Shown: positions 11,699 through 12,431 of the stretch, in pieces | How the letters are laid out: each line of letters begins with the position of its first letter | How positions within the stretch are numbered: position 1 is the first letter of the stretch | Assembly (NCBI GenBank): GCA_023254095.1 | Contig: JALNLM010000024.1 | Span: 1-12,431, forward strand | Source of the DNA: Candidatus Geocrenenecus huangii | Lineage (GTDB): Archaea; Thermoproteota; Nitrososphaeria_A; Caldarchaeales; Wolframiiraptoraceae | DNA length: 12,431 bases | Direction: 5' to 3' | Program-made: the position numbers and the translations under genes | Notes under the pieces: generated by a model | What the model was told of the DNA's origin: nothing | Seen by the model: only the letters and a program-made list of their open reading frames with translations | Database searches by the model: none

Positions 11699-12400
11699 CT
11701 AGGCGGTTGGCTCAACTATGCTTTGTTGTTTATACCATTCATCTTCTGTGAAGGCATTAGCTAAAGCTTCTCCAAAGGCTATGAATGTTGCATACCATAG
11801 ATTATAGGGATCTTCGCCTCTGATTAAGTCTACGTGAAGTGTTCCACCGATTGCTTGAGCAAACTCTACGAAGAATGATTTTAATGCTTCTTCAGATATT
11901 TCTCCCACCCTACCGAAGAATTTTACATTCGGCCCCCTTGTTATCCAGCATCCCGCTTTACCAGTTAAAAGAATTCTAACCTCCGCGAAGGCCTCACCAT
12001 ACAACCCCTGACTATATCCTAGTTTTCTTATACCTGTTGTTTTGCTTTTTTCTTGTGTTAGGATTCTCAGAGCTTCACCCAAGACTTTCCCTATATTTCC
12101 GATGATCCATGTACTCGATTTTACTGTATTAGTCTCAAGACGTAGATCAATGTTTAACTTAGAGTATTGAGCTAGTAGCCTTAGCATTTCGTCGAAGGAT
12201 CTTACACTAGTGTTTATGTTCCAGCTTTCCTTCGAACCCATCGTTATCCTGCAGTTTACAGTGGCGTCTTCTACACCCTTAACTATCTTTACAGCCTGAG
12301 GACTTGCTTCTAATACTTTGAAAAATGATCTTCGTCTAGGTCTTTCTACCTTTTCAATTTCTGTAGAAGTATTCGTACTATGTGAGGAAAAACTGTGCAT
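11699..12400 (-). CDS. Imidazoleglycerol-phosphate dehydratase (HisB)-fold protein lacking the catalytic metal ligands
   Basis: Scaffold motifs align with IGPD: INTSVRSFDEMLRLLA (cf. TGxxFxDHML), IGKVLGEAL, GIRKLG (cf. GIxRyG), GEA (cf. MDEA), FFVEFA, TLHV, GED, FIAFGEAL (cf. FKAfgxAL). Both HHxxE motifs are absent. Confidence 0.8.
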   Translation of the reverse strand: MHSFSSHSTNTSTEIEKVERPRRRSFFKVLEASPQAVKIVKGVEDATVNCRITMGSKESWNINTSVRSFDEMLRLLAQYSKLNIDLRLETNTVKSSTWIIGNIGKVLGEALRILTQEKSKTTGIRKLGYSQGLYGEAFAEVRILLTGKAGCWITRGPNVKFFGRVGEISEEALKSFFVEFAQAIGGTLHVDLIRGEDPYNLWYATFIAFGEALANAFTEDEWYKQQSIVEPTA

Positions 12401-12431
12401 CCTAGTGTTGTAGTTTCATGACTAAATATTA

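Follow-up and report, generated by a model that had tools for sequence, protein, structure and literature searches.

The gene and its product

The stretch of DNA analyzed here (hereinafter the window) comprises 12,431 nucleotides and is the whole of contig C15 in the 1.61-Mb, 32-contig assembly of the hot-spring archaeon Candidatus Geocrenenecus huangii, which is 96.4% complete. Near one end of it lies a complete open reading frame (ORF; 11699..12400) on the minus strand, with the ATG start at the 12400 end and the stop codon at 11699-11701, which codes for a 233-aa protein related to imidazoleglycerol-phosphate dehydratase (IGPD), the HisB enzyme of histidine biosynthesis. We refer to this protein and its closest relatives as type B and to a second divergent class of IGPD homologs as type A; both labels were coined in this analysis. 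An earlier note on this DNA had read the ORF as an intact, full-length member of the IGPD fold in which the metal-binding catalytic motifs are replaced. The ORF is indeed intact and full length between these coordinates, on a strand that the note left unstated, and all features of the gene given below lie on that same strand.

Profile searches recovered the Pfam IGPD domain (PF00475) at 63.8 bits against a cut-off of 27 (e-value 2.5e-17), with residues 64-213 (11762..12211) aligned to positions 1-144 of the 144-position profile. Searches of PDB sequences with phmmer matched IGPDs throughout (18 distinct sequences; top match 1rhy, e-value 1.2e-8), and a protein atlas search with the window protein returned IGPD clusters only. 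We then compared an AlphaFold2 model built from a 13-sequence alignment (mean predicted local distance difference test [pLDDT] score 84.9; predicted template modelling score [pTM] 0.82) with the PDB using Foldseek, which superposed the same domain on known structures: the top 29 matches were all IGPDs, with target-normalised TM-scores of 0.76-0.89 and e-values of 6e-14 to 6.5e-11, and the next match reached an e-value of only 0.016. By homology and by fold the type B protein is a member of the Pfam IGPD family, in agreement with the earlier note. It shares with canonical IGPD (HisB/IGPD/HISN5; PF00475; e.g., PDB 6fwh, 4mu0, 1rhy, 5dnl) the four-helix bundle between two sheets, with TM-scores of 0.83-0.89 against the solved enzymes; to this fold, the model adds an N-terminal strand and a disordered tail. 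The tail (residues 1-25; 12326..12400) is specific to type B and poorly conserved, Ser/Thr-rich at first and then basic (isoelectric point [pI] 10.8 for residues 1-28), and is predicted to be disordered, with pLDDT below 50 over residues 1-22. A segment of the window protein, 'RRRSFFK', resembles a twin-arginine motif; we rejected a twin-arginine translocation (Tat) signal, as conservation of the RR does not extend to other type-B proteins and the segment that follows forms strands of the fold in the model.

Loss of the dehydratase active site

To compare the motif columns we used an alignment of 66 sequences (25 canonical IGPDs, 31 type A and 10 type B). The eight Mn-ligand positions are kept in all 25 canonical IGPDs. 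In the window protein a single one is still His, namely H189 (11834..11836), and the other seven are occupied by E71, T97, W98, G101, Y199, N200 and Y203. H189, the former TLH His, is moreover one of exactly three histidines in the whole protein, the others being H2 and H7. The former FxDHM motif reads FDEML (residues 69-73; 12182..12196); the former DxHHxxED motif reads SSTWIIGN (residues 95-102; 12095..12118), with both His and the Glu gone and G101/N102 in place of the ED pair; and the former HHxxE motif reads YNLWY (residues 199-203; 11792..11806), again with both His and the Glu gone. The replacements extend to positions whose roles are taken from the literature on A. thaliana IGPD2: the catalytic Glu of RxTxET corresponds to D45, none of the three phosphate-binding positions is kept (GIxR Arg, SGR Arg and FKA Lys are K126, K148 and I207, respectively), and the C-terminal S-T-K of the PSTK loop is absent, with V229/E230/P231 there instead. 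Every motif replacement that the earlier note had listed is found in this alignment, and its count of three histidines agrees with the sequence.

These departures from canonical IGPD are mirrored in the NCBIfam HisB equivalogs, none of which was passed (0 of 13; 41-64.5 bits against cut-offs of 189-443), while a canonical HisB of the same archaeal family passes at 235 bits against a cut-off of 231. The same replacements recur in 10 further database proteins, recovered by a word-indexed protein search at 59-78% identity to the window protein, and in the homologs encoded by the genomes of relatives; chance is therefore no explanation for them. Judged by these residues, the window protein cannot be a normal Mn-dependent dehydratase. 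The note had reached the same conclusion from the motifs, and the equivalog scores and the missing pathway (see below) bear it out.

Conservation of 90% or more within type B is seen at only five of the 25 former active-site positions (D45, D70, Y79, E136 and H189, the last of which is invariant). The DHM His position, E71 in the window protein, is variously K, R, E or Q; W98 is W in six of 10 type-B sequences, Y199 is Y in six and H in four, and Y203 is Y in four. A conserved, remodelled aromatic pocket, as the note had envisaged from the W and Y replacements, is not supported, because the former active-site positions drift in this manner.

The five conserved positions, all of them polar residues, together with W202 (invariant in type B and common to type A), are also the basis of an alternative in which the remodelled inter-subunit cleft would be a small-molecule site serving new chemistry or ligand sensing. 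Such a site would fit the conservation of the five residues, the presence of D45 in place of the catalytic Glu in nine of the 10 type-B sequences, the location of H189, E136 and Y79 within the predicted trimer interface, and the long stem branch of type B, which is consistent with a shift in function (both described below). However, 20 of the 25 former active-site positions drift, including the three aromatic ones detailed above; no new Cys/His/Ser constellation is seen; the residues conserved in type B only are mostly surface charges; and the gene has no metabolic gene linkage. We accordingly regard a new small-molecule site as an unlikely account of type B.

Relatives of the gene and its origin

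A profile search against 1.84 billion cluster representatives yielded 1113 matches with e-values of at most 1e-3, of which only four reached 1e-30: three, including a fragment, belonged to type B and the fourth to type A. We surveyed 35 genomes of the GTDB family Wolframiiraptoraceae, in which three classes of IGPD homologs are found. The first, canonical HisB (191-193 aa; Pfam 166-184 bits), passes an NCBIfam HisB cut-off and occurs in genus g4, in one g3 genome and in one g5 genome. The second, type A (Pfam 95-114 bits), occurs in nine g5 genomes and in G012; in g5, where no other IGPD homolog accompanies it, it is flanked by hisD on one side and by hisG-hisA-hisF-hisE-hisH-hisI on the other. 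The third, type B (Pfam 49-69 bits), is restricted to genus g1, which is Geocrenenecus, and always lies downstream of cdvB. The genus Ca. Geocrenenecus was named in PMC9246946, in whose main text 'histidine' is not mentioned.

Type A is an ancestor-like sister group of type B, with which it shares 35-39% identity and a set of derived features, namely W202, the GxSQG block, a DEW-K C-terminal motif and the extra N-terminal strand. It keeps six to seven of the eight ligand positions, the Glu of RxTxET, a C-terminal GVKGT loop and the his-operon setting, all of which type B has lost; relative to canonical IGPD, the second His is missing from its first HH pair, and Gly occupies the place of the GIxR Arg. 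In two proteins (P0019 and P0020) type A is fused to HisD. An IQ-TREE analysis of the 66 rows split canonical IGPDs from type A plus type B with support of 100/100, and recovered type B as monophyletic (100/99) inside a 100/96 clade that also holds type A of the same family. These support values are rough, as the bootstrap was still short of full convergence; a quick tree agrees on type B. The type-B stem branch measures 0.70 substitutions per site. Given that type B nests within the family's type-A clade and that G012 carries both, type B is a paralog that arose by duplication of type A in the Geocrenenecus lineage.

Type A itself, found in many lineages besides Wolframiiraptoraceae, forms a widespread divergent IGPD subfamily (e.g., L023:6023-6679 on the plus strand, and L026:6051-6725 and L021:4675-5355 on the minus strand; P0013-P0035), marked by a single His in the first motif (L-x-H-x-x-x-E-D), FRA for FKA and a G-V-K-G-T C-terminus. 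It reaches about 117 bits where the NCBIfam HisB cut-off stands at 189, and so probably represents a class of HisB that is active, has a changed metal site and has gone unrecognised. Two unrelated HisB types thus occur in one archaeal family: most of g5 has type A, while canonical HisB is found in g4, one g3 genome and G026 (g5). This implies that one type replaced the other, by transfer or differential loss. Among the Geocrenenecus genomes, G012 alone has retained type A and hisD, and it is without hisG and full-length hisA/F. Its type-A gene (contig C18; L021:3611-9727) is located inside an ABC-transporter operon, in the order SBP_bac_8, two permeases, type A and ATPase, and adjoins hisD; this locus could be a salvage route or a remnant of the pathway.

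Absence of the histidine pathway

Pfam searches on all 10 other large ORFs of the window detected no his genes, as the earlier note had stated. At the level of the 96.4%-complete genome, a profile search showed the ORF to be the sole IGPD homolog, and HisD, HisG and PRA-CH (HisI) gave no match. The lone His_biosynth match above cut-off is partial and is a GGGP synthase (NF003198, 315 bits), leaving hisA and hisF absent from the genome, and a weak partial match to PRA-PH (24.6 bits) is left over. The pattern is genus-wide: HisG is absent from eight of eight Geocrenenecus genomes and HisD from seven of eight, and the His_biosynth matches in them are all of the partial, GGGP synthase-like kind. 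Going by these gene inventories, the genus Geocrenenecus has given up histidine biosynthesis and kept type B. In this respect too type B differs from canonical IGPD, having no his genes either adjoining it or elsewhere in the window genome.

The same inventories bear on the suggestion that type B continues to serve histidine synthesis, whether as an IGPD that works without metal or as an inactive subunit with a regulatory role in the oligomer of a real HisB, the latter being one of the roles that the earlier note had put forward. In G012, type B does occur alongside type A and hisD, and elsewhere there are tandem double-IGPD proteins with one degenerate repeat (P0033, P0034 and P0062), and a mixed oligomer may therefore be the ancestral state. 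Yet the window genome is without a second IGPD homolog to act as the active partner, and without hisG, hisA/F, hisI and hisD; HisG is missing throughout the genus; and just one of the eight ligand positions is kept. A present part in the pathway is thus very improbable, and the search for another IGPD homolog in the genome failed to bear out the inactive subunit.

Synteny, selection and expression

The last nucleotides of the window (12305-12431) are the exact reverse complement of the 3' end of contig C6 of G000 (87464-87590). Because of this exact 127-nt overlap C6 and the window contig can be joined, which places a cdvB gene 254 nt upstream of the ORF on the same strand. It codes for a 242-aa CdvB protein with an ESCRT-III domain and a winged helix (best PDB match CdvB2, 9s97, e-value 7e-22) and is preceded on C6 by glmS, herA and nurA. 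In each of the six genomes that hold a complete copy, type B comes after cdvB. Its ORF is intact and full length in all six, as it is in 10 further database clusters; in G013, as we read the sequence, a type-B-like reading frame is cut off by the contig end after about 37 codons. Two apparent TAA stops in the G008 match proved to be spurious, as the match overruns the stop by 9 nt and the 227-aa ORF, identical to P0012, is intact. In G007 (94% complete), type B is cleanly absent: cdvB is followed by a 124-nt gap (L035:2215-2338) and then by the convergent synthetase gene, and type B is therefore dispensable there.

Type B is the fastest-evolving gene of its neighborhood. Its identity to five congeners is 65, 60, 45, 42 and 36.5%, against 89-71% for CdvB, 88-77% for GlmS and 73-44% for NurA. 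We computed ratios of nonsynonymous to synonymous substitution rates (dN/dS) by the Nei-Gojobori method (NG86). Over the four least saturated pairs, with dS of 1.05-1.35 and hence so near saturation that the values are rough, dN/dS is 0.205-0.234 for type B, 0.03-0.04 for CdvB (three of the four pairs, one being saturated), 0.05-0.06 for GlmS, 0.09-0.13 for the ADP-forming acyl-CoA synthetase (ACS), 0.10-0.16 for NurA and 0.05-0.10 for an NTP-transferase; the type-B values are thus 2-5 times those of the neighbors. Of the 15 type-B pairs, four were too saturated for a ratio; across the remaining 11 it ranges from 0.18 to 0.44. Between near-identical strain contigs there are 12 coding differences, nine of them synonymous and three conservative nonsynonymous (N10S, V48I and T53A), and 33 columns are invariant over 13 sequences that share 33-75% identity. 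All in all, purifying selection on type B is genuine, though relaxed, and at least one species can do without the gene.

These data also frame the alternative that type B is a functionless relic of the lost pathway, held by weak residual constraint (e.g., against misfolding) until its eventual loss as in G007. The highest rate and dN/dS of the neighborhood, the clean deletion in G007, the narrow distribution and the drift of the former active site are what such a relic would display. A relic is, however, hard to reconcile with six complete genomic copies and 10 database clusters that remain intact and full length at dS above 1 between species, with dN/dS of about 0.2 rather than 1, with the nine-to-three excess of synonymous strain variants, with the 33 invariant columns, or with the conserved TATA-like block upstream of the gene (see below). 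On balance we doubt that type B is such a relic; simple decay, which the earlier note had raised, is at odds with the dN/dS values and the intact homologs.

The window holds 31 nt 5' of the start codon (12401..12431), which include eight of the 10 nucleotides of a TATA-like box, TTTAATATTT, located at -33 to -24 relative to the ATG; the overlapping contig C6 supplies the remainder of the box. The block that holds TTTAATATTT is conserved in G000, G009 and G010, the three closest species, and suggests a putative promoter, which we infer would yield a leaderless transcript. A second upstream block (TTGAAAAAT-GTTA ... TTTATAG; L016:9788-9822) is conserved in the same three, about 75-110 nt 5' of the start and outside the window. 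Metatranscriptome contigs from three runs in two studies fall on the gene; DNA can occur in such libraries by carry-over, and these contigs are thus only a hint of expression. They leave the 3' end of the adjacent ACS gene bare, a gap that carries no evidential weight. One of the RNA-library contigs (870 nt; run X17) extends from inside the gene (window 12034-12431) to about 470 nt past the window end toward cdvB. It could be read-through transcription or DNA carry-over and is no proof of a single transcript with cdvB; beyond this contig we found no evidence for co-transcription of the two genes.

Predicted assembly and surface features

According to PMC10978614, canonical IGPD requires two Mn2+ ions, the ligands of which come from different subunits, and stripping off the metal leaves trimers that are inactive. 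We predicted the assembly of type B from three copies of residues 24-228 with the alignment. The trimer scored 0.92, against 0.01 for the best of three controls, relative to a mark attained by 20 of 30 proteins whose structures are pairs of one chain and by one of 23 whose structures are single chains; the score may perhaps reflect mere likeness to the solved IGPD trimers. At least 96% of the contacts are common to the runs, and the partner's pLDDT is 92 or higher. Type B is thus predicted to be a homotrimer, and the predicted interface is equivalent to that of canonical IGPD. It is formed mainly by residues 127-152 (11945..12022), a segment with the invariant GYSQG-L-EA block and R142, together with residues 187, 189, 194, 200, 207, 211, 221-222, 56-57 and 78-81. 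The invariant residues Y79, Q131, G132, E136, R142, T187, H189 and W222 fall within it; overall, conservation is not significantly higher at the predicted interface than elsewhere (12 of 30 versus 49 of 175; one-sided p=0.13). The earlier note had also thought of a metal-independent cage or trimer. The trimer agrees with our prediction; the metal-free state is one that we infer.

Six charged surface residues are conserved specifically in type B (E31, K94, K160, K174, E179 and E219). The median pI of the full-length proteins is 8.84 in type B, as against 5.80 in type A and 6.14 in canonical IGPDs. This shift comes mostly from the N-terminal tail, because without it the change is small (median net charge of the core 0 vs -3), and we rejected nucleic-acid binding, for which such a small shift in core charge is too weak an argument.

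A candidate pseudoenzyme that outlived its pathway

Taken together, we favor, at a probability of roughly 60%, the reading that type B is a non-catalytic, probably trimeric pseudoenzyme derived from IGPD, with a role unrelated to histidine. Since purifying selection maintains the paralog although the pathway is gone, what it does today is unconnected with histidine production. It goes back to type A, the divergent HisB in the his operons of the family, which was duplicated in the Geocrenenecus lineage, the duplicate moving to the site downstream of cdvB. Fast evolution on the type-B stem would then have removed the two-Mn site and the phosphate-binding residues, with the alpha/beta sandwich fold and the trimer interface being kept by the paralog, and the later loss of histidine biosynthesis by the genus would have left it in place under purifying selection. 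Without bridging metals, it would most likely be a metal-free trimer and not a 24-mer, and it may act by binding a protein or another ligand, for which the conserved surface charges and the basic, Ser/Thr-rich N-terminal tail are candidate features.

A more specific version of this reading can be put forward tentatively. In it, a metal-free trimer would bind its ligand or partner through the inter-subunit cleft (D45, D70, Y79, E136, H189 and W202) in combination with the charged surface and the tail, and would be the first IGPD-derived pseudoenzyme with a new function, kept by a histidine-auxotrophic genus after loss of the pathway. In the open-access literature searched, we found no description of an IGPD pseudoenzyme or of an 'IGPD-like' protein.

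Several points weigh against the pseudoenzyme reading. The high rate of evolution, the raised and rough dN/dS values and the G007 deletion leave room for a relic, as discussed, and the trimer prediction carries the reservation about likeness to solved structures, together with the non-significant conservation of the interface. The type-B family is tiny, with four representatives at e-values of at most 1e-30 among 1.84 billion. We found no binding partner, ligand or operon link for type B in these analyses, and rejected a functional link to cdvB, since synteny conserved within one genus only is no proof of a functional tie. The impact is limited, in that the case concerns one uncultivated genus, with fast evolution and one loss.

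A parallel exists within histidine metabolism itself. HisZ, a catalytically dead paralog of histidyl-tRNA synthetase, regulates HisG. Like type B, it is a dead enzyme paralog tied to histidine metabolism and retained for a non-catalytic role; unlike type B, which has neither the pathway nor a partner in its genome, it works in the histidine pathway with an active partner.

IGPD has been well studied as a target of herbicides and antibiotics, and one function is assumed for the whole of its family. Type B, as the sole remnant of the histidine pathway in its genome, without an active site and under selection, suggests that the scaffold can be reused for another job, and would exemplify, in nature, a scaffold that persists after the pathway of its enzyme is gone. 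The series from canonical HisB through type A to type B within one archaeal family documents, step by step, the dismantling of the two-metal site. Type B also sets an annotation trap: because it passes the Pfam cut-off, automatic pipelines will label it 'hisB', which would falsely point to histidine prototrophy in reconstructions from metagenome-assembled genomes of Caldarchaeales.

Other genes of the window and further degenerate homologs

The remaining genes of the window code, according to Pfam, for a Cu-type P-ATPase, Sua5, an AdoMet decarboxylase, a Pit transporter, a DUF47 protein, PyrB and the NTP-transferase, along with a dihydroorotase-like amidohydrolase and the convergent ACS. Beyond this archaeal family, we recovered IGPD homologs with degenerate His motifs in other lineages (P0050, P0055, P0056, P0060, P0078, P0154 and P0159), of which P0050 has an N-terminal extension of about 110 aa. 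In the tandem double-IGPD proteins P0033, P0034 and P0062, one of the two repeats is degenerate. Going by these proteins, loss of the IGPD active site may have occurred repeatedly.

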